Assembly: GCA_963457535.1 (NCBI GenBank)
Contig: OY734803.1
Coordinates: 1,812,977 to 1,876,976, forward strand
DNA from: Arenicellales bacterium
Lineage (GTDB): Bacteria > Pseudomonadota > Gammaproteobacteria > Arenicellales > Poriferihabitantaceae
Length of the DNA stretch: 64,000 bases
Reading direction: 5' to 3'
The position numbers were made by a program, and so were the translations under genes. The stretch's first letter is position 1; every line of letters begins with the position of its first letter. The notes beneath the pieces were generated by a model. That model was given only the letters and a program-made list of their open reading frames with translations. It did not search any database and was not told the origin of the DNA. This document shows positions 1-36,400 of this stretch, one piece after another.

Positions 1-823
1 CCGGTTCGGACAGCACCGGCGTATACAGAAAATTTTCCCGCGCGCGCGCCCACTCTTCGGCGAGGGCGTGCATGTACACATCTTGTTCATCGCGCGCGCC
101 CCAAAAAAAATGAATGCGCCGCGCCGGGTCGGCCGCCAGCGCCTGTTCTATGAGCGCCTTGACCGGCGCGAAGCCGGTGCCGCCGGCCACCATAATCACC
201 GGGCGCGCCTCGTCTTCGCGCAAAAAATATGTGCCGAACGGCCCCTCAAAGCGAAGCAGATCGCGCTCGCGCATGGCGGCGAATACGCGCGGCGTAAAAC
301 GGCCGCCCGGCACATGACGAATGTGCAGTTCCAGGCCCTCCTCGCGCGCGCGCTCCGGCAAATTGGCCGCCGAAAAACTGCGGCGCTGGCCGTCCTTCAT
401 GATGATGTCGATATACTGCCCCGGAACAAAATTAAATTCCTGCGATTTCGGCGGCATCAAAAAAACGCGCATCACATCCTTCGCCGCTTTTTCCATCCGC
501 AGCACGCGGCACGGCAGCATGCGAATGCGAATGTCGGCGCCGGCCATGATCTCCTCGGCGTCTATGACCACATCCTCCAGCGGCACCGCCTGGCACAGCA
601 GCACCTTTCCCTGCGCGATTTCGCCCGCGCTCAGCGCGAACTCCTCGTATTCGCCGTAATCCACCTTGCCCGAAGCCAGCGTTGATTTGCACGCGCCGCA
701 CGCGCCGTTGCGGCAGCCGTAGGGAAACACGCGCTTGTCGCGCAGCGCCGCGTCGAGAATGGTCTCGCCCGGGTTGGCGGTGAACGCGCTTTGGTTGCGC
801 CGGTTGGTGACGGTGAAGGACAT
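1..823 (-). CDS. 2Fe-2S ferredoxin / FNR-type NAD(P)H-flavin oxidoreductase (AscD/Fre-like); the N-terminal part is in the window and the C-terminus runs off the left edge
   Basis: Not in the ORF track because no stop falls in the window. My reverse-complement translation from cat 821-823 gives MSFTVTNRRNQSAFTANPGETILDAALRDKRVFPYGCRNGACGACKSTLASGKV... This carries the plant-type C-x4-C-x2-C 2Fe-2S motif. It is followed by a flavin-binding-like RRSFS and the NAD-binding-like VIMVAGGTGFAPV. Confidence 0.8.
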   Translation of the reverse strand, partial: MSFTVTNRRNQSAFTANPGETILDAALRDKRVFPYGCRNGACGACKSTLASGKVDYGEYEEFALSAGEIAQGKVLLCQAVPLEDVVIDAEEIMAGADIRIRMLPCRVLRMEKAAKDVMRVFLMPPKSQEFNFVPGQYIDIIMKDGQRRSFSAANLPERAREEGLELHIRHVPGGRFTPRVFAAMRERDLLRFEGPFGTYFLREDEARPVIMVAGGTGFAPVKALIEQALAADPARRIHFFWGARDEQDVYMHALAEEWARARENFLYTPVLSEP

Positions 824-860
824 TCGGTTGTAGAATGCGCGCGAGGACGGATTGTATCGC

Positions 861-1673
861 ATGCCCGAACTTCCCGAAGTGGAAACCACGCTGAACGGCA
901 TTCGCCCCGATTTGCTTGGCGCAAAAATTCGGCTGGTGGTGCGCGAGCGGCGGTTGCGCTGGCCGATAGAGCCGCGGCTGGAGGCGAAGGTGCGCGGGCG
1001 GACGGTGACGCGCATGCGGCGGCGCGGAAAATACATGCTGCTCTATCTGGACCGCGGCGCGCTGCTGATGCACCTCGGCATGTCCGGCTCGTTTCGCACG
1101 CTCGCGCAGGGCGCGGCGGTCGCGCCGCATGACCATTACGACCTGCTCACCGACCGCGGCCGCGTGGTGCGCTACCGCGATCCGCGCCGCTTCGGCTGCC
1201 TGCTGTGGTGCGGCGGCGACCCAATGCAGCACGAGCGCATTCGCATGCTCGGCGTCGAGCCGCTGTCGGCCGAATTCAACGGCGCGTATTTGCGCGCGTC
1301 TTCGCGCGGCCGCACCTGCGCGGTAAAAATCCTGCTGATGAACGGCCGCGTGGTCACCGGCATCGGCAACATCTACGCGTCCGAGGCGCTTTTTGACGCC
1401 GGCATCCACCCGCTGCGCGCCTGCCACCGCATCAGCGAAGCGCGCTACCGCCGCCTGTGCGAGTCGGTGAAAAAAATCCTCGCGCGCGCCATCGCCCGCG
1501 GCGGCTCCACCATCCGCGACTTCTCCAACGCCGACGGCCTGCCCGGTTATTTTGAACAGGAATTGACGGTCTATGACCGCGAAGGCCAAACCTGTTTCCG
1601 CTGCCGCGGAAAAATCCGCTGCGAAACTGTCGGACAGCGCTCCACTTTCTTTTGCGGGAGGTGCCAGCGGTGA
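861..1673 (+). CDS. mutM: Formamidopyrimidine-DNA glycosylase (Fpg/MutM)
   Basis: ORF 852..1673 trimmed to ATG 861, so the protein begins MPELPEVETT (the catalytic Pro2 of Fpg). The C-terminal zinc finger is CFRCRGKIRCETVGQRSTFFCGRCQ. Confidence 0.95.
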   Translation: MPELPEVETTLNGIRPDLLGAKIRLVVRERRLRWPIEPRLEAKVRGRTVTRMRRRGKYMLLYLDRGALLMHLGMSGSFRTLAQGAAVAPHDHYDLLTDRGRVVRYRDPRRFGCLLWCGGDPMQHERIRMLGVEPLSAEFNGAYLRASSRGRTCAVKILLMNGRVVTGIGNIYASEALFDAGIHPLRACHRISEARYRRLCESVKKILARAIARGGSTIRDFSNADGLPGYFEQELTVYDREGQTCFRCRGKIRCETVGQRSTFFCGRCQR

Positions 1674-1701
1674 GCGGTTTGCAGAAACGCGGACATTGAT
1701 C

Positions 1702-1730
1702 TTGATAATGAGAAAAAATTCTGCTATAAT
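1702..1730 (+). promoter_or_regulatory. Near-consensus sigma70-type promoter for the low-GC two-gene islet
   Basis: TTGATA (1702-1707), a 17-nt spacer, then TATAAT (1725-1730). It lies about 35 nt upstream of the GGGAG Shine-Dalgarno (1758-1762) and ATG 1769. Confidence 0.6.
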
Positions 1731-1768
1731 TGCGGTTTCAATGAACTGGATCGCAATGGGAGATGAAC

Positions 1769-2536
1769 ATGAAACTTGCAGGTAATTATGATATTCGGGA
1801 ACTGCACGGTTTTCGCGAAGCAAACAACATCACGCAGTTTTGCGAATTCATGCGTCAACTGGACATGGAAAAGCTCAGCGATGCATATGAAGAGGAAAAA
1901 GCGCGCGCGCCTCGCCGCGAGAAATATTTTGTCGGCCACACCGGAAAACCCACCACTAGAAATGCAAAAAGCAACCGCCGTGAAGAACACTTGGCGATGG
2001 CGCTTTGTAATGATTTCGAAAAAAAGGGTGGAATCGAGCATGAGAAAATCTCCAAATTGGAGTTTTTGGATTATCAACTTCCGCTGACAGCGCGCGGAGG
2101 CGGCGTGGACTTCGGTGAGGTCGACCTCTTTGGCGTGATCGATGATGCGCACCCGTGCGTGGTCGAACTAAAAATCGGCAATGAAACGCCGTTGCGCGCG
2201 CTTCTGGAGGCGCTGGCGTATTGCGCCATTGTGGAAGCAAATATCGAAGACATCGCAAAGGAATCGCGAGTGAAATTCCGCGCGGAACAACCGCGGTTGC
2301 TCATTCTGGCGCCGAATCCGTACTGGCAAAAATTCATCGAAAAAAGCGCGGCCGGAAAGTGGCAGCCGGAGTTTGTGCGCTTTCTCCAAAGCATTCGCAA
2401 ACATATCGGTGTGCGCGTACATCTTGCCGCGTTGCCCGATGACATACTCTCCATGTTTTCCATGGGCGACAAAAATACGGAGCCCCGCTTGCGCTGCAAT
2501 AAGTGCATACTAAAATTCGTCCGGTTGGAGGTCTGA
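1769..2536 (+). CDS. Hypothetical protein with a PD-(D/E)XK-type nuclease signature (islet ORF1)
   Basis: ORF 1763..2536. ATG 1769 has GGGAG 6 nt upstream, whereas ATG 1763 abuts the SD. The region is visibly AT-richer than its flanks. The motif is GEVDLFGVIDDAHPCVVELKIG (D ... E-x-K). I do not recognise a named family. Confidence 0.7.
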   Translation: MKLAGNYDIRELHGFREANNITQFCEFMRQLDMEKLSDAYEEEKARAPRREKYFVGHTGKPTTRNAKSNRREEHLAMALCNDFEKKGGIEHEKISKLEFLDYQLPLTARGGGVDFGEVDLFGVIDDAHPCVVELKIGNETPLRALLEALAYCAIVEANIEDIAKESRVKFRAEQPRLLILAPNPYWQKFIEKSAAGKWQPEFVRFLQSIRKHIGVRVHLAALPDDILSMFSMGDKNTEPRLRCNKCILKFVRLEV

Positions 2537-2539
2537 AAA

Positions 2540-3456
2540 GTGAACTATCTGAACGAACAACTCTGGAATTACGCCGAGTCCGAGGGGCTGTTGCCGAAAC
2601 TCAACGAGCGTGTCCGCACAAATGAGCGGCCGCCCGTCTTCCAGCGGCAATATGCCGACCAAAACATTCTTCTCCCTCCGGATGCGGATGATGAGACGCG
2701 TTCCAAAGTGGTCTGCGGGGTGTCGCGGCGCAAGCGGCATTCGAAGTTTTGCAGCATGAAAAGTTCGCAGGCATTGGCACAGTCGGTTTTTGCAAACCTC
2801 GTCGCAAGCGGCGATTTGCATGTACTGAATGATTTGGTAGCGGACCGGGGTTTGCCCGCGTTTGGTGTCGATTTGGGTGGCGCGAAAGTGCAGCTGGAAT
2901 ACGCTGTCGGCCACTTGGGGGAACCGACCCAGTCCCGGACATCTATAGATGTGTTCATCAGCGGTGAGCGCCGCGTCGCGGTTGAATGCAAACTTACCGA
3001 ACAAAAGTTTGATAAGTGTTCGCGGGTGCGGGAAAAAAAATGTGATGGAAACTACGCGCGGCAGCGCGGCCGGAAAGAACGCTGCTACTTGAGCGAACGA
3101 AACATCCTCTACTGGAAATACGCGCCGGATTTTTTCATTTGGAAAAACGACCGCGACATTTTCCCGTGCCCGCTGCGCTTCACCTATCAGATCGCGAGGA
3201 ATCTGCTGGCCGCCGGCGTACTTGAGAATGGCTCGGTTGCCGCCGATTCCTCCCATGCACTGATCATTTATGATGAGCGCAACCCGGAGTTTGGCGGCGG
3301 CGGAAAGTGCCGCGGACAATTTGACGCCGCCTGCAATGCGCTTAAAATTCCGTCAATGCTGCGTTTATGCAGTTGGCAGTCCGTGACCGGGGAACTTGCG
3401 AAAAATGCATCCACCAAATGGCTGGCGGCGCAACTGCAAAACAAATACGGCTTTTA

Positions 3457-3457
<1 letters not shown>
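2540..3457 (+). CDS. Hypothetical protein with a PD-(D/E)XK-type nuclease signature plus a Cys-rich segment (islet ORF2)
   Basis: ORF 2540..3457 has a GTG start with GGAGG (2527-2531) 8 nt upstream, lying inside the end of ORF1. The motif is TSIDVFISGERRVAVECKLTE, followed by CSRVREKKCDGNY..ERCYL..CPL. The stop TAA (3455-3457) overlaps the next gene's ATG. Confidence 0.7.
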
Positions 3458-4368
<911 letters not shown>

Positions 4369-4413
4369 CGCGCGCAAAAAAATTCCCGCCGGAAAAGTCA
4401 TGACGGGGAAGCG

Positions 4414-5949
4414 GTGAAAGGCGCGGTCGCCGCCGGCCACCGGCTGACCGCCGAGGCCGCCGCCGAAATGCTGCGCACCGGCGGCAACGCGTTTGACGCG
4501 GCGATCGCCGGCTTTTTTGCGGCATGCGTTGCCGAGCCGGTGCTCGCTTCGCCGGGCGGCGGCGGGTATTTGCTCGCGCGGGACGCGCGCGGGCGGGCGC
4601 GCATGTTTGATTTTTTCGCGCACACTCCGCGCGCCAAGCCGGACGCGCGCGGCCGCGAGTTGGATTTCTTTTCGGTCACCGTGGATTTCGGCGCGGCGCA
4701 GCAGGAGTTTCACATCGGCCTCGGCTCCTGCGCGGCGCCCGGCGCGGTGCGCGGTATGTTCGGCGCGCACCGCGAACTCGGCACGCTGCCGATGACCGAG
4801 TTGGTTCGCCCGGCGGCCGAAATGGCGCGCGCCGGCGTTGAGGTCAACGCGTTTCAATCCTATCTGGTGGAATTGGTTGGCCCGATTTTTCGCAGCGAGT
4901 CGGTGTTCCCGCTTTTTCAAAGCGCGAGTTGCCCCGGCGAATTGGCGCAGCCGGGCGACATGTTTACCAACCCGCAACTCGCCGACTTTTTGGAAACGCT
5001 GGCGCGCGAGGGCGAGGCGTTTTTTTACGAAGGGGAAATCGCGGCCGCGGTCGCCGAGCAATGCCGCGACCGCGGCTTTTTGACGCGCGCCGACATGCGC
5101 GCATATCAAACCCGCATGCGCGCGCCGCTGGAAATTGCATACCACGGCCGCCGCCTGCTGACCAACCCGGCGCCGAGCGCCGGCGGTTTGCTGGTCGCTT
5201 TCGGATTGGAATTGCTGAAGCAGTCCGGCCTCGGCGCGGACGGGCACGGCGGCGGCGCGCATTGCCGCGCGCTCTCCGCCGCGCTGCGCGCGACCTGCGA
5301 GGCGCGCAGCCGGCATTTTTCCGACGGCCCCAGCGACGAATTGCTGCACCCGGAATTGCTCGCGCAATACCGCCGCAAAGTGCCGCCGCCCGGTTCGGCG
5401 CTGCGCGCCGCGCGCGGCACCACGCACATCAGCGCGATGGATTCGGCGAACAACACCGCCTCGCTCACGGTCTCCAACGGCGAAGGCTGCGGCATTCTGT
5501 TGCCCGGCGCCGGTTTCATGCTGAACAACATGCTCGGCGAAGAGGACTTAAACCCCGGCGGTTTTCACCGCTGGCGGCCGAACCGGCGCATGTCTTCCAT
5601 GATGGCGCCGGGAATTTTGCTGGGGAACGATTATGAGGCCGCGCTCGGCTCGGGCGGCTCCAACCGCATTCGCAGCGCGATTTTGCAGGTGGTCAGCAAC
5701 CTCGTAGATTTCGGCATGGAATTGCCCGAGGCGCTGGCCGCGCCGCGCATGCACATTGAAAATGACGCGTTGTATCTGGAATCCGGAATGCCGGCGCAGC
5801 GCGAAATGCAAAATGCGTTTCCGAATCATCGCGTGTTTGAAGAGCCGAACATGTTTTTCGGCGGCGTGCATGTCGCCGAACGCAAAGCGGGCGAAAAAAT
5901 ATCCGCGCTCGGCGACCCGCGCCGCGACGGCGTCGGCGTTATCGTGTAG
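4414..5949 (+). CDS. ggt: Gamma-glutamyltransferase family protein
   Basis: ORF 4414..5949 (GTG start). GGT-family features: N-terminal AGHRLTAEAAAEMLRTGGNAFDAAIA, the autoprocessing site RGTTHISAMD, and GGSNRIRSAILQ. No obvious signal peptide. Confidence 0.85.
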   Translation: MKGAVAAGHRLTAEAAAEMLRTGGNAFDAAIAGFFAACVAEPVLASPGGGGYLLARDARGRARMFDFFAHTPRAKPDARGRELDFFSVTVDFGAAQQEFHIGLGSCAAPGAVRGMFGAHRELGTLPMTELVRPAAEMARAGVEVNAFQSYLVELVGPIFRSESVFPLFQSASCPGELAQPGDMFTNPQLADFLETLAREGEAFFYEGEIAAAVAEQCRDRGFLTRADMRAYQTRMRAPLEIAYHGRRLLTNPAPSAGGLLVAFGLELLKQSGLGADGHGGGAHCRALSAALRATCEARSRHFSDGPSDELLHPELLAQYRRKVPPPGSALRAARGTTHISAMDSANNTASLTVSNGEGCGILLPGAGFMLNNMLGEEDLNPGGFHRWRPNRRMSSMMAPGILLGNDYEAALGSGGSNRIRSAILQVVSNLVDFGMELPEALAAPRMHIENDALYLESGMPAQREMQNAFPNHRVFEEPNMFFGGVHVAERKAGEKISALGDPRRDGVGVIV

Positions 5950-5987: not shown

Positions 5988-6707
5988 ATGCGTGAAATTG
6001 GCAACAACCGTGAGCGAAAGATGCGCGGCGGGCGCGCGGCGGCGGTGATGCTTGCCGCATTTTTTGCGGGGGGCGCATGGGCGCAAACTCCGGCGCCGAC
6101 GCTGAGCTCCCTTGTGGTTGCTGATCCGCATGGCAAGGTTCTGAGCACCGGCACGGGTTCGACCATCATTGTAAGCGGCATCACTTTTCCATATGTATTT
6201 GTGACGGCGACCGCATCCGATGCGGATGCAACCATCATTCTGCAAGTCACGCCCACACTATCCATTCCTCTTCCATCGGGTGTTGCAGTGAAGGTTCGTT
6301 TTATCCGCGGGGTCAGAACTCGCGTGGTTCGTGTGTCCAAATCCGGCGCCACAAGAGACTATACGTTGGTCCTCATTCGCCACGGCGATGGTCACTCCGA
6401 CGACCCGACGAGTTTCCGCGCAACCGCGGACCGCGGCTCCATCGATCTCGCTTGGGATCCGCCGACCGACACCAACGGCACGGACATCATCGGCTACAAA
6501 GTCCGCTGGAAAACGGCGGATGCGAGCGCAACGTATTCCAACACCGGCGGCAAAGCCGGCGCCGATATTCCCGGCGGAGCGTCCGCAAGGACGCACACGA
6601 TTCCCGAACTCACCGCCGGCACCACCTACGAAGTCCAAGTCGCCGCGGCGAACACTTTCGGCACCGGCGGCTGGCTGATTCGCAGCGCGCCGTTCCGAGG
6701 GAGGTAA
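5988..6707 (+). CDS. Secreted cadherin-like / Fn3 / dockerin-like protein, upstream frame segment (gene split by a frame change near 6675)
   Basis: ORF 5988..6707. An alternative ATG at 6021 gives the signal-peptide-like MRGGRAAAVMLAAFFAGGAWA/QT. A beta-sandwich segment is followed by an Fn3 domain (SIDLAWDPPTDTNGTDIIGYKVRW...TTYEVQVAAANTFGTGGW). The frame then ends in RSAPFRGR*, while the domain continues in another frame. Confidence 0.75.
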   Translation: MREIGNNRERKMRGGRAAAVMLAAFFAGGAWAQTPAPTLSSLVVADPHGKVLSTGTGSTIIVSGITFPYVFVTATASDADATIILQVTPTLSIPLPSGVAVKVRFIRGVRTRVVRVSKSGATRDYTLVLIRHGDGHSDDPTSFRATADRGSIDLAWDPPTDTNGTDIIGYKVRWKTADASATYSNTGGKAGADIPGGASARTHTIPELTAGTTYEVQVAAANTFGTGGWLIRSAPFRGR

Positions 6708-9913: not shown

Positions 9914-10034
9914 GGCGGTGGTGGCGGGGTGGAAGCGGGATTGTAGCCGACTTGGGGCGGTCTGCGGCGGTCCCGCAGCCGCCCCGAACCGGTAATTTGC
10001 GCCCGAAAAATTTCGCATTTCCGGCGGCATTCGG

Positions 10035-10063
10035 TTGACGGCGCGGGCGCGGGCGGGTATACT
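10035..10063 (+). promoter_or_regulatory. Putative sigma70 promoter of rplU-rpmA
   Basis: TTGACG (10035-10040), a 17-nt spacer, then TATACT (10058-10063). The SD CAGGAG is at 10075-10080 and the ATG at 10090. Confidence 0.5.
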
Positions 10064-10089
10064 CCGCCTCCTTTCAGGAGTCCCGCAAA

Positions 10090-10614
10090 ATGTACGCAGT
10101 AATTGAAACCGGCGGCAAGCAGTATAAAGTCGCCCTCGGAGACAAACTCAAGGTGGAAAAACTGGCGGCCGAAGCCGGCGCCTCGGTGCGCCCGCGCGTG
10201 CTGCTGGTGGCGAACGGCGGCGATGTCGCGGCCGGCGCGCCTGCGGCCAAGACCGAAGTTTCGGCGAAAGTTTTGTCGCATGGCCGCGGCGAAAAAATCC
10301 GCGTGTTTAAGATGAAGCGGCGCAAAGGCTACCGCCGCACCATCGGCCACCGCCAGTCCTACACCGAGATTCAGATCACCGCAATCGGCGGCGAAAAATT
10401 CACCGGCGAAAAGCCCGCGCAAAACTCCGCGAAGAAAACCTCCGCGAAAACTTCCGCAAAGAAAGCCGAGGAAAAAACTTCGGAAAAAAGTTCCGCGAAA
10501 AAAGCCGGGGCGAAAAAAGCCGGGGCGAAAAAATCTTCCGCGAAAACTTCCGCAAAGAAAACCACCGCGAAAAAATCTTCCGCGAAAACCTCCGCGGCAA
10601 ACGCAACCGAATAG
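10090..10614 (+). CDS. rplU: 50S ribosomal protein L21 with a ~70-aa Ala/Lys/Ser-rich C-terminal extension
   Basis: ORF 10090..10614. The core is [14 protein letters not shown]...[38 protein letters not shown]. The tail is [55 protein letters not shown]. Confidence 0.93.
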
Positions 10615-10624
10615 GAGCAAAACC

Positions 10625-10882
10625 ATGGCACACAAAAAAGCCGGCGGAAGTTCGCGCAACGGCCGCGACTCCGCCTCCAAGCGACTCGGTATCAAAAAAT
10701 ACGGCGGCGAGCGCGTCCTCGCCGGCAACATTTTGGTGCGCCAGCGCGGCACCACCTTCCACCCCGGCAGCAATGTCCGCGCCGGCCGCGACTACACGCT
10801 GTTCGCCACCACCGCAGGCAAGGTGTCCTTCCACACGCGCGGGCGGCGCGGGCGCAAAACCGTGAGCGTCCTCGCCGAATAG
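10625..10882 (+). CDS. rpmA: 50S ribosomal protein L27
   Basis: ORF 10625..10882, starting [29 protein letters not shown]... Confidence 0.97.
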
Positions 10883-10915
10883 GCGCAATCGGCCAACCTG
10901 GCCAAATCCGCTTGA

Positions 10916-13083
<2,168 letters not shown>

Positions 13084-22640: not shown

Positions 22641-23174
22641 ATGCGCAACAGGAACCGGAATTGTCCGGCGAAATCGCCGGGACTGCTGCGGCGTTTGTCG
22701 CGGCGAATTTGCGCCGCGCGCCGGCGGCGGGCGGTGGAGCGGTTTGTGCGCGGGCCGGAGTTTGCCGCGTATCTGCTGAAACCGCGGCCGGCGAAAGCGC
22801 CGGGCAGGGCAAAAAATCCGGCAGAGGCGCGCCAGGATTTTGTGCCGCTGGCGGTGCTGGACGGCGAGTTGATGCGCGTCATCGGCGCGAGGTCAGCGGT
22901 GTTGCGGCTGACCGACCGGGGTGCGGACAAGATGTGGCGGTTTCACGGGCCGGGCATGCGGTACCGAAAATCAAGCGACAACCGGGAAAAATATGTGCCG
23001 CTGGAATGGTATGCGGACATCCCGCGGATCTTGCGGGAAGCGAAGCCGTTCAAAAACATGATGCGGCACTGGCAACTAAACCATGCCGGCCTGAAACGAG
23101 CGCTGGTGATCGATGTGGACGACGGCGGCAATCCGGTGCTGATTTCCTATCACGGCAAGAAAAATCTGAGATGA
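22641..23174 (+). CDS. Hypothetical protein (orphan, Arg-rich N-terminus)
   Basis: ORF 22641..23174 has GGGAGA 4 nt upstream of its ATG. Third codon positions are strongly G/C-biased along the whole frame, which supports coding. I recognise no family motif. Its stop overlaps the minus-strand terminator hairpin of the tandem element. Confidence 0.55.
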   Translation: MRNRNRNCPAKSPGLLRRLSRRICAARRRRAVERFVRGPEFAAYLLKPRPAKAPGRAKNPAEARQDFVPLAVLDGELMRVIGARSAVLRLTDRGADKMWRFHGPGMRYRKSSDNREKYVPLEWYADIPRILREAKPFKNMMRHWQLNHAGLKRALVIDVDDGGNPVLISYHGKKNLR

Positions 23175-23320
23175 AAAAACGGGCTGCTTGCCGCAAAGCG
23201 GGGCAATCAAGCAGCCATGGCGGATGTATGAGGGTCATTGCCAAACCTCCTCACGCCTCTGACAGCGATACCCGGTCAAACCGAACATCGCAATTCTTTC
23301 GCGCCGCGCTTTCGCGCGAC
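23171..23320 (-). ncRNA. Candidate structured sRNA, distal copy of a tandem pair (alternative reading: leader plus micro-ORF)
   Basis: Repeat copy 23177-23320. On the minus strand it shows four elements. The first is a cgcgc-GAAA-gcgcg stem-loop. The second is the hairpin GCGAUG..UAUCGC. The third is GAGGAGG. The fourth is a terminal hairpin GGCUGCUUG(23216-23208)...CAAGCAGCC(23190-23182) followed by C-UUUUUU (A6 at 23174-23179 on the + strand). Confidence 0.4.
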
Positions 23321-23333
23321 AGTATCGCAAATA

Positions 23334-23483
23334 ATGAAACGGGCTGCCTGCCGCAAAGCGGGGCAATCAAGCAGCCATGGCGGATGTATGATGGTCATTG
23401 CCAAACCTCCTCACGCCTCTGACAGCGATGCCCGGTCAAACCGAACATCGCAATTCTTTCGCGCCGCGCTTTTCGCGCGACAA
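23334..23483 (-). ncRNA. Candidate structured sRNA, promoter-proximal copy of the tandem pair
   Basis: Repeat copy 23337-23481, 160 nt from the other copy, differing by 3 substitutions and one 1-nt loop indel. It is preceded on the minus strand by a TTGACA / TGgCATAAT promoter. Its terminal hairpin GGCUGCUUG...CAGGCAGCC contains a G.U wobble and is followed by CGUUUCAUUAUUU. Confidence 0.4.
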
Positions 23484-23487
23484 GTGA

Positions 23488-23514
23488 ATTATGCCACATC
23501 ACCCCCCTTGTCAA
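23488..23514 (-). promoter_or_regulatory. Putative promoter for the tandem element (within the last codons of hemW)
   Basis: Minus-strand reading: TTGACA (23514-23509), a 15-nt spacer, then an extended -10 TGg-CATAAT (23496-23488). The repeat unit begins about 7 nt downstream. Confidence 0.45.
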
Positions 23515-24760
23515 GCGCTTCACGAAAAAAATCCGGCCGCTTTTTGCCGCTTTTTTTGGGCTCCCCCGGCAGCGCCTCCTGCAAAATCTCGTCCAAAAAC
23601 CACCACCCCTTTTCGCTGCAGCGCACCCGTTTATTTTTCTGCACCACCCAGCCGCGCGCGCGGGAGTTGGCGACGGCGGCGAGGGCATCTTCGGCGGAAT
23701 GCGCGGCGCGGGCGCGCACCAAATCCGCGCTGAAACCGTCGCGCAAACGCAATGCGCCGAGCAAAAATTCAAACAACATATCGGCGCGCGCGATTTCGGC
23801 GCGGTTTTCCGTCGCCGGATTTTCTCCCTCGCCCGCATTAATAATGTCCTCCTCCAGCCCGGCCAAATACCGCCGCGGATGTTTGCGTTTCCAATACCGC
23901 GTCACCACATGTTCATCTTTTCCGGCGCGCGTAATTTTCCCGTGCGCGCCGGCGCCGATGCCGAGGTAGTCGCCGAACTCCCAGTAATTTAAATTGTGCC
24001 GGCACGCGCCGCCGCTTTTTGCGAACGCCGAAACCTCATAGCGGCGCAGTTCGCATTTCTCCGCGCGCGCCTGCAGTTTGCGCTGCATTTCCACGGCTTT
24101 TTCGTCTCCCGGCAATTTCGGCGGGCGGCGGTAAAAATGCGTGTGCGGCTCAATGGTCAGTTGATACAGCGAAAGGTGGCGCGGCGAAAAATCCAGCGCG
24201 ATGTCCAGGTCGCGCAGCGCGGCGCGGGTGGTTTGCTGCGGCAGCGCGAACATCAAATCCACATTCAGGTTTTCAAAACCAGCGTCCATCGCGGCGCGAA
24301 TCGCGCGGCGCGCGTCGTTCCCTGAGTGAATGCGCCCGAGCGCGCGAAGTTGCGCGTCCGCAAAACTCTGCGCGCCGAGCGAAAGGCGGTTGACGCCGGC
24401 GGCGCGAAAGTCGCGGAAGTTTTCATGTTCGGCCGCGCCGGGGTTTGCTTCCATGGTGATTTCCGCGCCGCCGCAGTCAAAACGCGCGCGCAGTCCGGCG
24501 AGAAATTCGGCAATGCTTTCCGGGGCGAACAAACTGGGCGTGCCGCCGCCGAGAAAAACGGAAATCAGTTTGCGCCCGCGCGCGCCGGCGGCGGCGCCGC
24601 GCGGCGCGAGGTCGCGGTCCAAGTCGCGCAACAGCGCGCCGACATATCCGGCTTGGTCAATTTCGCCGCGCAATTCGTGCGAATTGAAATCGCAATACGG
24701 GCATTTTTTCACGCACCATGGAAAGTGCGCGTAAAGCGCGAGCGGCGGGGCGGTCGGCAT
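23489..24760 (-). CDS. hemW: Radical SAM heme chaperone HemW (HemN-like, YggW family)
   Basis: ORF 23489..24760. The N-terminus LALYAHFPWCVKKCPYCDFNSH carries the CxxxCxxC radical-SAM motif. GGGTPS follows, then a HemN_C-like C-terminal part. Confidence 0.9.
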   Translation of the reverse strand: MPTAPPLALYAHFPWCVKKCPYCDFNSHELRGEIDQAGYVGALLRDLDRDLAPRGAAAGARGRKLISVFLGGGTPSLFAPESIAEFLAGLRARFDCGGAEITMEANPGAAEHENFRDFRAAGVNRLSLGAQSFADAQLRALGRIHSGNDARRAIRAAMDAGFENLNVDLMFALPQQTTRAALRDLDIALDFSPRHLSLYQLTIEPHTHFYRRPPKLPGDEKAVEMQRKLQARAEKCELRRYEVSAFAKSGGACRHNLNYWEFGDYLGIGAGAHGKITRAGKDEHVVTRYWKRKHPRRYLAGLEEDIINAGEGENPATENRAEIARADMLFEFLLGALRLRDGFSADLVRARAAHSAEDALAAVANSRARGWVVQKNKRVRCSEKGWWFLDEILQEALPGEPKKSGKKRPDFFREALDKGGDVA

Positions 24761-32600: not shown

Positions 32601-33219
32601 CGCCGGCAACATCACCAAGCGCAAACTGGTGGTGCGCGCCGATGACCGCATCGGTTTCAGCCGGCCCGACGCGGGCGAATTGCGCTGGAGCGTCGCCGAG
32701 GGCGCGCCCGGCGAGGGCCTCGCTCCCGGCGAGAGCGCGCGCGACGCGCTTAGCGGCTCGCTCGCCTACGGAGACGAAAACGCCGACGGAAACTTCCCGA
32801 TTTTGCGCGGCAGCATCGCCGCGACCGCCAACTACACTTTTGACCCGGCCGATTTCACCCCGGGCCTGCTCACCCTCGGCAGCCCGCTGGACGCCGACGA
32901 CAGCAACTCGGCCGACCATGTGGATGGGTTGCTGGTGGCGCGTTATGTGCTCGGCCTGCGCGGCGCGGCGCTGATCGCCGGACTGGAATCGCAACTGGCC
33001 GAAAACGCCGACGCCGAAAGCGTCGCCGAAAAATTAAAAGCCGGCGCCGACGAGTTTGAAGTGGACGGCGCCGGCGGCGAGCGCGCCAACGCCGCCGACG
33101 GAATCATGATCGCGCGCTACATGCTCGGCGTGCGCGGAGCCGCGCTGACCCACGGACAAAGCGAAACCGCCCCGGCCGAGGTGGAGAAAACCATCGCGGA
33201 TTTGCTGCCGCAGGAATGA
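29527..33219 (+). CDS. Same giant gene, downstream frame segment: YDG/MBG-type repeats plus a C-terminal dockerin-like module
   Basis: This is the frame of ORF 29563..33219. Read from 29527 it continues the interrupted repeat as FTLAGAAAANYQLRADVRGDIRRRAVTY. Many (K/R)xYD(G/A) repeat starts follow. The C-terminus is DADDSNSADHVDGLLVARYVLGLRG ... VDGAGGERANAADGIMIARYMLGVRG ... IADLLPQE. Confidence 0.85.
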   Translation, partial: FTLAGAAAANYQLRADVRGDIRRRAVTYADTADARAYDGGVTVSGALDDGVWTPPLVSGDQVGVDASGARFEDADVGAAKAVTGLSASGAAAGNYDITFAVSGDITPREAVVGAVVLHKVYDGGNSLAGAEVASGSVTGAGSESLQLRLKSDASGAYASVNAAGGISLSGIDGGDFELAASGGAKASNYRLPSAITASGIIAKRPLHVRANNLSDDAPPTAGLGDLSRVTVLSGVAGTGLVAPDTAAQVLQGAIAFGARVADGDTAPIQRGTLAVKSGLPGDNYELVFIEGVFTYLDPNRATLVLTPTTTTRVYGAPEPGEFAYTVAPQAGSNFAAGHSAATMFFTANPVVRADAANNAAGAYDFLLAASPQYAAGIRATYNFLIADGAQYTITPKPLYFTATAGTAKEYDGGAAASEDFAGNFGGGLVSGDEVDVEISPGGYDSKNVAEASVINVALAGAKAGNYDLQTASVSASITPRPVRVSAVTLTKTYDGTTAPSETAVRGGGAVSDTVLGESFTLRVSITAYESAAVGAGIGVSGASFSLVAGNAASLPGNYKLPADIAITGAITKLATTYTDSVSRVYDAGRDLGVELGGDFAPPLAGGDTVVINPVGATFGDANAGAGKTVGGLSAEGSELGNYEVQIDVSGEITRRPLNVTAAGTGEIAPADLSTLLEIGEGDGHGFAGDDTAAQVLQGGIALGTRTPPTGAGEAPLTQGTLALRAGFPGQNYDLRFLPGAFTFTPPSRRTLVVTPAAANTRVYDGTASESADYPYTVAPVAGQEFVGDDTAETEFFTANPLERAAGADAGDYAFSLKVPRPFAAGVELKYVFVVADGAAYTVTPKEVALGEVALTRQYDAGTALAGATFSGGEVSGEIGAQNLEAHLKSGHSGAYAAADAGGNIGVTGLSRDDFELRSADSSATPGNYQLPATVAVRGVITPKPVTVTASGASKVYDNSTSPPSGITAAFAGGDIFAADAGQVSAEFGDYNSKDVADAAAISVARLVAGNGGDKSGNYTPANATVAGNITKRKLVVRADDRIGFSRPDAGELRWSVAEGAPGEGLAPGESARDALSGSLAYGDENADGNFPILRGSIAATANYTFDPADFTPGLLTLGSPLDADDSNSADHVDGLLVARYVLGLRGAALIAGLESQLAENADAESVAEKLKAGADEFEVDGAGGERANAADGIMIARYMLGVRGAALTHGQSETAPAEVEKTIADLLPQE

Positions 33220-33235
33220 GAGGCGGCGCGGAGAG

Positions 33236-33445
33236 TTTTCCGCGGGGATTTTCCGGCGGCGGTTTTCCGCGAAGAGTTTTCCGACGGGATTTTTCGGCGG
33301 AGATTTTCCGCGAGGAATTTTCCGACGGGATTTTCAGCGGCGGTTTTCAGCGGCCCTTTTTAATGGGCGGCGCGGCGAAAATGGGCGGCATTTTTCGCCG
33401 CGATTTGCTATGATTTTTAGGCGCGATTTTCCCGCCAATTTCCCC
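33236..33445. repeat. Largest TTTTCCG motif array (13-14-bp period), between the two giant genes
   Basis: T-run starts at 33236, 33249, 33263, 33277, 33290, 33304, 33318, 33331, 33344 and 33357, with spacings of 13 or 14. Looser copies occur at about 33390, 33413, 33427 and 33438. The unit is approximately GGCGGAGATTTTCCG. Confidence 0.85.
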
Positions 33446-33466
33446 CCACCCCCCGGAGATATACCG

Positions 33467-36400
33467 ATGAAACTTCCCGTCAAATTTTTCCCCGCCGCGC
33501 TTGGCGCGTTTTTGGTTTTGTTCGCCGCGCCTTTTCAGGCGCATGCGCAGTCGTCGGATGCGACGCTGGCGGGCTTCAATCTTAACGAACCTCATAGCCG
33601 CAGCTCGCAGCGTCCGACTCCGCAGTTGGCCCCGGCGTTTGATCCGCAGGTGGAGAACTATCTCGCTTTCTTCCCGAATAACCACAGCACTCGAAGCAGC
33701 GAGCGGTCTGCGAATGTGTCGGTTAGCCCGCGAACCAAGCCCGGTCAGACCGTTCAGACCACGGCCTCGGGCAGCGGGGCTTTCCCCCCCAGGGGCACCC
33801 GCACATACACTTTCGTGGTCACGGCCGCGGACGGACGAACCACCAAGACTTACACCGTTCTCGCGCTGCTCTCGCATCACTCGTCGCCGCATGGAATCGT
33901 CATTTCCGACGCAAGCAACGATTCGCGGGAGTTTTCGCTGACGCCGGTCTACTCGCCGCTGACCGCCGAATACAATGTGGTCGTGCCGTTTGATGTGAGC
34001 GCGATCAAGGTTCGCGCGATACACCCCCCGTATCACAACCCGGCCAGTCCCCACCGCCGGGTTCACCGCAATGTGGACCTGCGCAAATGGGAGGACGACG
34101 TCAGCAGCAAAGTGGAGGACCTCACCGAAAACGCGCGCAGCCAGCAATCGGTGGCGGTTCCGGAGGGCGGCCAGGCGGTGCGCCTGAGCATCTACACGGA
34201 CGAGGTTGTCTTTCAGCTCGGCAGCGGTAGAGACGCCAGCCCGGCCAGCGAGTATTTCCTCAACATCGTGCGCGCCCCCGCGCCGCATCCGCTGGCGCTT
34301 TCCGCGCTGGAGGTCGTCAATACCGCCGACGATTCCACGCTGGATTTGACGCCGGAATTTGAGGCCGATGTCGGCAATTATGTGGTGCGGCTGCCGAACA
34401 ATCAGGACGCCACGCTGAAAGTTCGCGCGACCGCGGCCGCGGCCAATACCGCGAGCCTCTCGGTTCGCCTCAACGGCGCCGCTTTTCAGGGGAGTCTCGC
34501 AAGCGGCGCGCTGAGCAATGACATTTCCGCCGCCGGCGCGCCCGGTTCCGAGACGGACATCATCGTGCAGGTGACCGGCGCATCGGGCAGCCGCCAATAC
34601 ACGGTGCGGGTGATTCCGCCGCTGACCGCCGGCGCGGCGAGCGCGCTCTCCGCTTTGTCGGCGGCGACGCCGGACGGCTCCGCGGTGGTGTTTGACCGCG
34701 CGTTTCACCGCTCCACGAGGTCGTATTCCGCGCTTGTGCCGCGCCCGGCGAACTTCGTCAAAGTCACCGCGACGCCGGCCGACAGCAATGCGAGCATGAC
34801 GCTGAACGGCGCCGCGCTGGCCGGCGGCGCGGAGAGCGGCGAGATCGCGCTCTCCCTCGCAAACGGCGGCGCGAACAAACTTGAACTGGCGGTCACCGCC
34901 GCCGACCGGCAAAGCAGCCAAACCTACACGCTCAACATCACCCGCACGCAGGTGATTCCCGACGCGCAAAACGCGCGGCTTCGCGAGTTGCGGTTTACCT
35001 CGGGCGCGCTGGGCGCGGCTTTTTCGCCGGACACCACCGCCTACACCGCGGCGCTGCCCGGGCGGGTGCGGGTGATCGCAGTGCCCGAAGCCGCGGGCGC
35101 GAGCATTCGCATCAGCGGCGACGCGCTGACGAGCGGCGACCGCGGCGCGCTTGCCGCCGGTGCGCCGAGCGCCTTTTTGCTGCATCGCGCGCCGCCGGCC
35201 ACTTCCACGCTCAATGTGGAAGTAACCGCGTCCGACGGCGCGACCACGAAGACCTACACGGTCACCATCACCAACACCGCGCAGCGCAACATTGCGACGC
35301 TGGACGCGATTCGCTTTCGCTCCTGCGAGCGCCAGCCCGGCGGAAGCAGCGCGTTTTGCAGCACTTCCACGCTGCGCGATGAGGCCGCGATTTTTCATCC
35401 GCCGTTTGCCCCGGGAGACGCGAGCAAACTGCGCTACGCGGTGGTTTTGCCGAATACCAGCCGCCTCGCCCATCTCGTGCTGGCCGACGCCACCGACGGC
35501 CGCACCACCGCCGCGCGGATCACCAGCCCCGGTCACACGAGCGCAAGCGGCGACAACCGGGCGATAAATTTCGCCGCGGACAGATCGCGCGAAGTGCGGC
35601 TGGAGGTCATCGCCGACGACGGAACCAGGCTCACCTACATCCTCACCGTCAGCCGCGCCGCGGCCTCCAAACAGACGCTGTCGTGGCCCGCCGGCAACCA
35701 CAGAAAAGCCTACGGCGCGAATGACCCGGCGATTCCCCGGGCGGCCCTGCCGGTGGACTTTGCCACGGTGTTTTCCGCAGATCCGGTTACGCGCGCGCCC
35801 GGCGAGACGCCCGGCGTATACAACTACCGGCCGAAAGACCCGATACCGTGGGCCTCGGCCGACGCCGCGGCGCGCTACACCCTGAGCGTTAGCGGCAACC
35901 TGACCATCCCGAAGCGCCGGCTTACCCACGCCGGAACCCTGAACAAAGTGTATGACGGCTCCGCGGCCGTGACGCAGGAGATTCCGGCGTTCGGCAATGT
36001 GGTCGGCGCGCGCACCGTGAACGGCGTGGCGATTGACGACACGCAGCCGGGAAAGTTGTATGCGCGCAACTGCGCATACGCGGACAAAAACGCCGGCGAG
36101 AACAAACAAATCAACTGCGAATTGGCCGGCGAATCCGCGGCCTATTACGAACTCGCGTCGCGCCCCACCGGCAGCATCACCCCGCTGCAACTCACGGTGT
36201 TCGGCAAGGTCGCGCCGCGCGTGTATGACGGCACCACCGCCGTTACCGGCGACATCACCATCCTGTCGGCAAATCCGCCGCTGCAGGCCGACGAAGATAT
36301 TACCTTGTCCGCATCGGGCGGCCGGTATGCCGACATCAACGCCGGCTTTGAGAAGCAGGTCACGGCGGCCCTGATCGCGCGCGAGGGCGGGGACAAAGAC

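Follow-up and report, generated by a model that had tools for sequence, protein, structure and literature searches.

A low-GC islet between mutM and cysK of an Arenicellales bacterium encodes a candidate methyltransferase-free pair of PD-(D/E)xK nucleases

The mutM-cysK interval of an Arenicellales bacterium (GCA_963457535.1, contig OY734803.1) holds two adjacent genes, here ORF1 and ORF2, which we analysed within a 64-kb stretch of that contig, hereafter the window; coordinates are window positions unless another locus is named. ORF2 adds a member to a known but uncharacterised family of predicted nucleases, and ORF1 represents an unannotated family. Our favoured interpretation, which we hold at about an even chance, is that the two form a horizontally acquired heteromeric nuclease with two different PD-(D/E)xK subunits, working without a methyltransferase and most likely directed against phages or plasmids. 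The evidence comes from the conservation of both active sites, the recurrent pairing and fusion of the two families across phyla, and the behavior of the islet in close relatives.

The features of the islet are as follows:
1702-1730, plus strand: islet promoter, with -35 box TTGATA at 1702-1707, 17 nt, and TG-extended -10 box TATAAT at 1725-1730
1758-1762, plus strand: ORF1 ribosome-binding site GGGAG, 6 nt before the ATG at 1769, as read from the sequence
1763-2536, plus strand: ORF1, 257 aa (255 aa if the start is the ATG at 1769), unannotated PD-(D/E)xK-like family, here termed A1
2527-2531, plus strand: ORF2 ribosome-binding site GGAGG, within the end of ORF1 and 8 nt before the ORF2 GTG
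2540-3457, plus strand: ORF2, GTG start, 305 aa, Pfam PF22558 REase-ARP

Two nuclease-like families and their pairing

ORF2 matches Pfam family PF22558, REase-ARP, with an E-value of 4.1e-25 and 89.3 bits against a gathering cut-off of 27, over profile positions 30-270 of 270. It also matches PDDEXK_13 weakly, and a 58%-identical relative is named by NCBI as 'PGN_0703 family putative restriction endonuclease'. ORF1, on the other hand, returned no match in Pfam, NCBIfam or PADLOC; that it might be a known family under another name was considered and rejected, the 30-residue match to PHROGs (E 0.003) being dismissed. The original prediction, made from the letters of this DNA, had recognised neither protein as a named family, which holds for ORF1 and fails for ORF2. 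The REase-ARP family has been defined computationally and no paper on it was found in the literature searched. Its name (restriction endonuclease associating with ARP) implies that an association with a partner had already been noticed by someone, and full-text literature searches, Aravind-lab papers among them, did not reveal what 'ARP' denotes. If ARP is ORF1, the pairing of the two families is already known in silico.

The AlphaFold2 model of ORF1 is of high confidence, with a predicted local distance difference test score (pLDDT) of 92.4. It contains a helix at residues 72-88, strands at 89-92, 99-107, 119-126 (carrying D121) and 130-136 (carrying E135, with K137 directly after), a further helix at 143-159 and a strand at 178-184. 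This order of elements (alpha, four beta strands, alpha, beta) agrees with the PD-(D/E)xK core and places D121 and E135-x-K137 on successive strands; together with E75 these residues are the catalytic candidates. Among relatives, D103, Q105, D121 and K137 are conserved in 77 of 77 sequences and E135 in 76. The best Foldseek matches are to NucS/EndoMS in the PDB (E 0.056-0.085) and reach 2e-3 in BFVD, none being significant, with TM-scores of about 0.2-0.3. Nearly all the weak top matches are nonetheless of the PD-(D/E)xK type: NucS/EndoMS, SfsA, Card1, Exo5, SduA, AdnAB, viral PD-(D/E)xK proteins, MmcB-like proteins and Mrr. Moreover, one relative of ORF1 (P0459) weakly matches PDDEXK_1 (E 0.0036). 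No match was obtained when the A1 profile was compared with PDB sequences, and for neither ORF1 nor ORF2, as single proteins or profiles, was a sequence relative of solved structure found. Because the model is confident and D121, E135 and K137 are practically invariant, the analysis points to ORF1 as a divergent PD-(D/E)xK nuclease.

The family is large, with 265 matches in a word-indexed search and 1291 clusters at 50% identity (E <= 1e-3), 238 of them at E <= 1e-30, among 1.84 billion representatives. In another strain ORF1 seems split into two proteins of 80 and 179 aa (P0512 and P0513) on one 18,103-nt contig, which might reflect either a frameshifted pseudogene or a faulty assembly.

For ORF2, the model is equally confident (pLDDT 95.1) and the weak fold matches include SduA, Hjc, EcoRV, HincII and Can2. 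The catalytic residues are D137, E149 and K151. Of the 105 relatives aligned, all keep Q77, E128, K151 and E154, and 104 keep D137 and E149. The D...(D/E)xK motifs that had been pointed out in both proteins are hence not chance occurrences, and it is supported, at the level of sequence, that both are PD-(D/E)xK-type proteins with intact catalytic residues. The Cys-rich stretch noticed in ORF2 proved equally well preserved: C160, C168, C182 and C210 are kept in 104-105 of the 105 relatives, which suggests a putative structural metal site, for Zn or an Fe-S cluster. Homology between the two proteins was rejected, with an hhalign probability of 0.2%.

We then turn to how the two families occur together. 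A scan with an ORF1 profile, taking one genome per species, gave 80 loci in Gamma- and Alphaproteobacteria, Acidobacteriota, Nitrospinota, Binatia, Chloroflexota, Actinomycetota and others, several of them sponge-associated lineages, and the distribution across phyla is sporadic. A REase-ARP gene is adjacent to or fused with the ORF1 relative in at least 34 of the 80. The partners recognised are:
Canonical REase-ARP directly downstream of the ORF1 relative: 18 loci
Single-ORF fusion of ORF1 and REase-ARP, for example in Antarctobacter heliothermus DSM 11445 (L048 3049-4779), 576 aa: 8 loci
Adjacent divergent REase-ARP of about 260 aa: 7 loci
Partner assigned to REase-ARP by Pfam (L075): 1 locus
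REase-ARP-type gene near but non-adjacent: 5 loci
Metallo-beta-lactamase (MBL) of 414 aa, a beta-CASP-like nuclease, in either gene order: 5 loci

Fusion proteins of 550-640 aa are also present among the representative clusters, as are proteins of 600-680 aa that carry ORF1 at the C-terminus, one of which (P0496) has a weakly NERD-like N-terminal part. Where the genes are separate in other phyla, their spacing ranges from a 4-nt overlap to a 3-nt gap, similar to the window, where 3 nt separate the ORF1 stop from the GTG of ORF2. The translational coupling first proposed from this gap and from the GGAGG 8 nt before the GTG is thereby joined by the occurrence of the two as one protein in other genomes.

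All-against-all clustering of the flanking ORFs in the 80 loci revealed no third recurrent family and no methyltransferase; the apparent candidates for a third gene were antisense shadows of the two genes and lineage-specific neighbours. Similarly, a 449-aa 'partner' in Bryobacterales is spurious, the equivalent ORF in L071 (354 aa) reading as an antisense shadow of an NHL-repeat gene. Approached from the ORF2 side, nearly all of the eight loci with ORF1 upstream are among the closest ORF2 matches (44-52% identity), and the remaining loci have a solitary REase-ARP or varied neighbours. The genes upstream of these ORF1-less REase-ARP genes (a RecD-like helicase, an RNase T-type exonuclease, thiolase-like enzymes and unknowns) include none related to ORF1.

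Two individual loci merit description. On a metagenome contig (L174 8078-11033) the ORF1 relative overlaps the gene for the 414-aa MBL nuclease by 1 nt, with a DnaB_C/AAA_25 ATPase gene directly upstream and WYL/WCX, DUF2779 and Fic genes close by, an arrangement that resembles a defence island. In L084 (6001-11942), a set of DruA, an unknown 402-aa protein and DUF87-ResIII that is possibly Druantia-like adjoins a REase-ARP that stands alone, without ORF1, and is 56% identical to ORF2.

Relatives of ORF1 are absent from the INPHARED, PLSDB and IMG/VR collections, while ORF2-type relatives amount to one IMG/VR contig and distant matches on rhizobial plasmids. A phage or plasmid origin was rejected on these grounds, and the module is best taken as host-encoded.

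The islet and the mutM-cysK site

The borders of the islet and a further signal within it are:
861-1673, plus strand: mutM (Fpg), the left border of the variable site, with its stop at 1673
3321-3348, plus strand: promoter-like site within the 3' third of ORF2, TTGACG, 16 nt, TAAAAT, 10/12 match
3457-4368, plus strand: cysK (cysteine synthase, PALP), the right border, whose ATG overlaps the ORF2 stop (TAATG)

The drop in GC content between the mutM stop at 1673 and the cysK ATG at 3457, from which a two-gene islet had been proposed, was confirmed in coordinates and composition, with a GC of 0.525 where the window averages 0.666 (z = -4.4). No other segment of the same size in the 64 kb is as low, the next lowest non-overlapping one being at 0.596, and the local GC is 0.47-0.57 within the islet and 0.63-0.70 in the flanks. 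The GC content at third codon positions (GC3) follows suit, with 0.59 for ORF1 and 0.64 for ORF2, compared with 0.80-0.83 for mutM, cysK and GGT, the gamma-glutamyltranspeptidase gene downstream of cysK. Other patches of lower GC lie at 23001-24000 (0.577), 10001-11000 (0.607) and 33001-34000 (0.609), none as low as the islet; that at 10001-11000 also has a strong AT skew of 0.31.

The islet's own near-consensus promoter is likewise present where it had been placed. TTGATA-17 nt-TATAAT matches the sigma-70 consensus at 11 of 12 positions and is the best of four promoter-like sites in 800-4600 (shuffled mean 1.1), and its -10 box shows 0 mismatches to L001, the near-identical annotated locus described below. 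The in-frame ATG at 1769 is the likelier start of ORF1, as GGGAG lies 6 nt upstream and close homologues begin with MKLAG and are 255 aa long. At the borders of the islet, the search for att-like direct or inverted repeats found just short matches of chance quality, and no flanking repeats.

The order mutM-ORF1-ORF2-cysK-GGT recurs in L001, with flank proteins 98-99% identical (MutM, recognised by Pfam Fapy_DNA_glyco/H2TH as in the homologues, is 99% identical), and in L085, at 82-86%. Both retain the 1-nt overlap of ORF2 and cysK, and in both the pair is low in GC3, so that the pair is foreign in this respect in all three carrier lineages. Further downstream, a fibronectin-type-III repeat protein following GGT has 547 aa in L001 (12268-13911), and the first ORF of this region in the window just 239 aa (5988-6707); the gene may be interrupted or differently phased in the window.

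Three more distant relatives, L169, L170 and L171, have MutM proteins 72-76% identical to that of the window, with the same upstream genes in all three and the same downstream genes in two. At the equivalent site they carry:
L169, 5829-5986: an empty site, mutM followed by cysK with a 158-nt spacer
L170, 5831-6977: an N6_N4 methyltransferase and a 115-aa ORF
L171, 5926-10825: an AlbA_2/HATPase gene followed by an MmeI-like type IIG restriction-modification (R-M) enzyme

The spacer of L169 includes tandem TCGTTTAGA(A/T)TT-like repeats. With the site empty in one relative and filled by other cassettes in two, the interval between mutM and cysK appears as a location where defence-type cassettes come and go. 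A variable hotspot with a horizontally acquired islet is thus supported by these comparisons. The original prediction of an acquired defence-type module agrees with the foreign composition and with a site that holds R-M cassettes or nothing in relatives. The opposite outcome that it had allowed for, a conserved native pair, is borne out as far as the pair is kept at the exact site in L001 and L085 (flank proteins 82-99%). It fails in the remaining respects: the islet is judged acquired and variable since its GC3 is always non-native, since it is absent or replaced where MutM is 72-76% identical, and since it is mosaic or deleted in near-identical strains.

The nature of the site also bears on the proposal that the pair is the endonuclease half of a type II R-M system, heterodimeric and BbvCI-like, whose methyltransferase is encoded elsewhere in the genome. 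Two different PD-(D/E)xK subunits, each with a catalytic site, the NCBI designation of a relative as a putative restriction endonuclease and the location in an R-M hotspot are all in line with such an enzyme. However, within about 8 kb of the pair in L001 no methyltransferase was called, nor any ATPase, integrase or transposase, and no methyltransferase recurs in the flanks of the 80 loci; the claim that the pair lacks a modification gene alongside was accordingly upheld. Mobile R-M cassettes seldom have their cognate methyltransferase at an unlinked position, and we consider this proposal improbable.

Alleles and a deletion in near-identical strains

Compared with L001, the window contains a sharply bounded region of divergence:
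1674-3067, plus strand: allelic (recombined) segment, comprising the promoter region, ORF1 and the first ~175 codons of ORF2

DNA identity to L001 is 63-81% over most of this segment (one 100-nt stretch, 1801-1897, is at 91%), as opposed to mostly 96-100% in flanking intervals, a level regained inside ORF2, with breakpoints at about 1674 and 3067. At the protein level ORF1 is 69% identical and ORF2 84%, against the 98-99% of the flank proteins. Synonymous divergence (dS) amounts to 0.53 for ORF1 and 0.72 for the N-terminal part of ORF2, and to 0.047 for the C-terminal part of ORF2 and 0.03-0.10 for the flanking genes. In-situ accelerated evolution was rejected as the cause, because synonymous sites too diverge 10-20 times more within the segment than outside it and because the boundaries are sharp; the segment is, judging from the alignments, a divergent allele imported by homologous recombination. 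The ratio of non-synonymous to synonymous divergence (dN/dS) within it is 0.25-0.36, indicating that both genes are under purifying selection.

The 3' third of ORF2 stays 96-100% identical among strains although the remainder of the cassette is swapped, and the region of the promoter-like site at 3321-3348 is 100% identical in L001 and L172, a strain from the same metagenome as L001. This site could drive cysK, and the 3' third of ORF2 may thereby carry expression signals for cysK.

In L172, with flanks 99-100% identical, a clean deletion of about 1697-2476 (L172 3913-4000) has removed the promoter and almost all of ORF1. ORF2 is intact and a mosaic of both alleles with further breakpoints, and its ribosome-binding site has changed from GGAGG to GGATG. 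Such strain-level dynamics are typical of defence loci. They also render the locus a natural experiment on diversification by recombination at a chromosomal hotspot, with three states (two alleles and an ORF1 deletion) co-existing in near-identical strains.

Exchange of alleles by homologous recombination, with breakpoints in or beside the cassette, could also be expected of a selfish, homing-like nuclease cassette that cuts empty sites and brings the host no benefit, and so could a position between conserved genes with neither integrase nor transposase. Nevertheless, neither flanking repeats nor a target-site signature were found, insertion sites vary between phyla, and other types of cassette occupy the same site, the latter being more in keeping with a general hotspot than with a target of site-specific homing. 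We regard a selfish cassette as very improbable.

Purifying selection on both genes would in turn suit an accessory nuclease of DNA repair or recombination, structure- or mismatch-specific in the manner of NucS/EndoMS, for which the adjacency to mutM would be functional. The best PDB fold matches of ORF1 are to NucS/EndoMS, those in BFVD include MmcB-like repair proteins, and the pair adjoins addAB in L175 as it does mutM here. But all these fold matches are non-significant and of low TM-score, L169 has no such pair and L170 and L171 hold R-M cassettes in its place, the GC3 of the pair is non-native in each of the three carrier lineages and the occurrence across phyla is sporadic. Other genomes have different genes beside the pair, so the proximity to mutM is a local feature. 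A role in repair hence seems quite unlikely.

The ORF1 deletion is relevant to a third scenario, in which the genes form a toxin-antitoxin or abortive-infection pair, ORF2 being a toxic nuclease that ORF1 restrains, or ORF1 sensing infection and releasing it. Tight coupling of the genes, with the upstream one expected to be made first, is congruent with this, as are the strain variability of the locus and the combination of a constant component with exchangeable nuclease 'effectors', a design reminiscent of defence systems built from a sensor and an effector. On the other hand, ORF1 keeps a complete and near-invariant D/ExK set, unexpected for a mere inhibitor, and does not fit the upstream, non-enzymatic and indispensable neutraliser that characterises type II toxin-antitoxin pairs. 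Furthermore, at least 8 genomes encode the two proteins as a natural fusion, the majority of REase-ARP genes have no ORF1 beside them, and L172 keeps an intact ORF2 in the absence of ORF1, with the caveat that the promoter was lost too and ORF2 may be silent. This scenario is therefore unlikely.

A candidate defence nuclease compared with known systems

We thus favor a heteromeric nuclease acting in defence, for which the following mode of action can be proposed. Two mutually unrelated PD-(D/E)xK nucleases would act as one enzyme, with ORF1 as the conserved core subunit and ORF2 as one of several interchangeable second nucleases; it is the exchange of the second nuclease that would make ORF1 the defining component. 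The strong promoter of the islet and the translational coupling would supply the subunits in fixed proportion, and the coupling together with the natural fusions argues for a 1:1 complex. Since the active sites are intact in both families, both subunits would be expected to cut. The complex would then attack invading phage or plasmid DNA in the absence of a cognate methyltransferase, self and foreign being told apart by a modification or a structural feature; for the pair, a type IV-like, modification-dependent activity is one possibility. The assignment to defence draws on context, namely the hotspot shared with R-M cassettes, the foreign composition, the presence/absence pattern and allelic mosaicism, and the lack of ORF1 relatives in phage collections. 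Nuclease activity on DNA, the role in defence and the basis of target discrimination are all inferred.

Several observations weigh against this interpretation. Foldseek gave no statistically significant structural match for either protein in the PDB or BFVD; the comparison of AlphaFold models that had been recommended for the locus delivered weak matches mostly of the anticipated PD-(D/E)xK type, none of them significant. In about 33 of the 80 loci of the ORF1 family no partner was recognised, and among the ORF2-derived loci that were decidable ORF1 is upstream in 8 of 50 and absent from 42, from which it follows that the two families are not obligate partners. The neighbourhoods in other phyla often consist of ordinary housekeeping genes rather than obvious defence islands. 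Neither protein matched any of the 5027 models of PADLOC-DB v2.0.0 at E <= 1, and the literature searched provided no experimental or other evidence for a role of either family in defence. A methyltransferase-less nuclease needs a means of sparing its own DNA, yet none was found for the pair. Finally, a physical complex of ORF1 and ORF2 is suggested by the fusions rather than seen.

Going beyond the window, the ORF1 family, with its roughly 1,300 clusters at 50% identity, may tentatively be viewed as an uncatalogued and widespread class of dual-nuclease immunity. Its core would pair or fuse with REase-ARP, a beta-CASP MBL or a NERD-like protein and destroy foreign DNA without a methyltransferase, and the rapidly exchanged region (the C-terminal half of ORF1 and the N-terminal part of ORF2) would carry the target specificity or a surface attacked by phage inhibitors. 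We deem this broader claim doubtful, though clearly less so than the rival scenarios above.

Neither PADLOC v2 nor the literature searched contains a module of ORF1 and a second nuclease. If it is a defence enzyme, it represents a compact two-gene, methyltransferase-free nuclease system that PADLOC has missed, and it offers a first functional handle on both the Pfam REase-ARP family and the unannotated ORF1 family. The architecture lends itself to testing through its natural fusions and exchangeable second nuclease, and a nuclease of two different subunits, each with its own active site, could serve as a source of nicking or cutting enzymes. The candidate is clean and testable, yet one of many candidate nuclease systems.

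Among described systems, the closest by family is REase-ARP/PGN_0703 itself, which ORF2 resembles in its near-full-length match and its D...ExK core; no member of PF22558 has however been characterised, ORF1 has no Pfam model, and most of the REase-ARP genes examined have no ORF1 neighbour. A further parallel is found on plasmids of Rhizobium and Sinorhizobium, where a REase-ARP gene (34-36% identity to ORF2) lies directly downstream of a gene of the PD-(D/E)xK clan, DUF2726. These pairs differ in that DUF2726 is not detectably related to ORF1, a homology that was rejected at an hhalign probability of 0.3%, in the presence of a third small, DUF6998-like gene, and in being plasmid-borne. In Rhizobium phaseoli plasmids (L086 5059-7246 and L087 5096-7285) the DUF2726, REase-ARP and 165-aa DUF6998-like genes form a conserved set, and the three-gene set has 38 plasmid matches, all in Rhizobium, Sinorhizobium or Ensifer.

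In architecture, the islet resembles the heterodimeric type IIT enzymes BbvCI and Bpu10I, which come with cognate methyltransferases and whose two subunits are paralogous. As in these enzymes, two different PD-(D/E)xK subunits with their own catalytic sites are encoded side by side and could cut both strands together; unlike them, the islet has no methyltransferase, and ORF1 and ORF2 display no detectable mutual homology. With respect to type IV restriction (Mrr, McrBC, GmrSD) and Shedu (SduA), the common ground is that a PD-(D/E)xK nuclease lies in variable chromosomal islands with no modification gene alongside, and SduA is among the weak fold matches of both proteins. Neither ORF has a Pfam match to Mrr, McrB/C, GmrSD or DUF4263, or any PADLOC match, and at Pfam E <= 1 both are free of type IV catalytic or reader domains (Mrr_cat, McrB/C, GmrSD, SRA, PUA/EVE and similar). 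In addition, no modification-reading or GTPase domain was found by Pfam in the ORFs of the islet, which would employ two nuclease subunits where type IV systems and Shedu have one.

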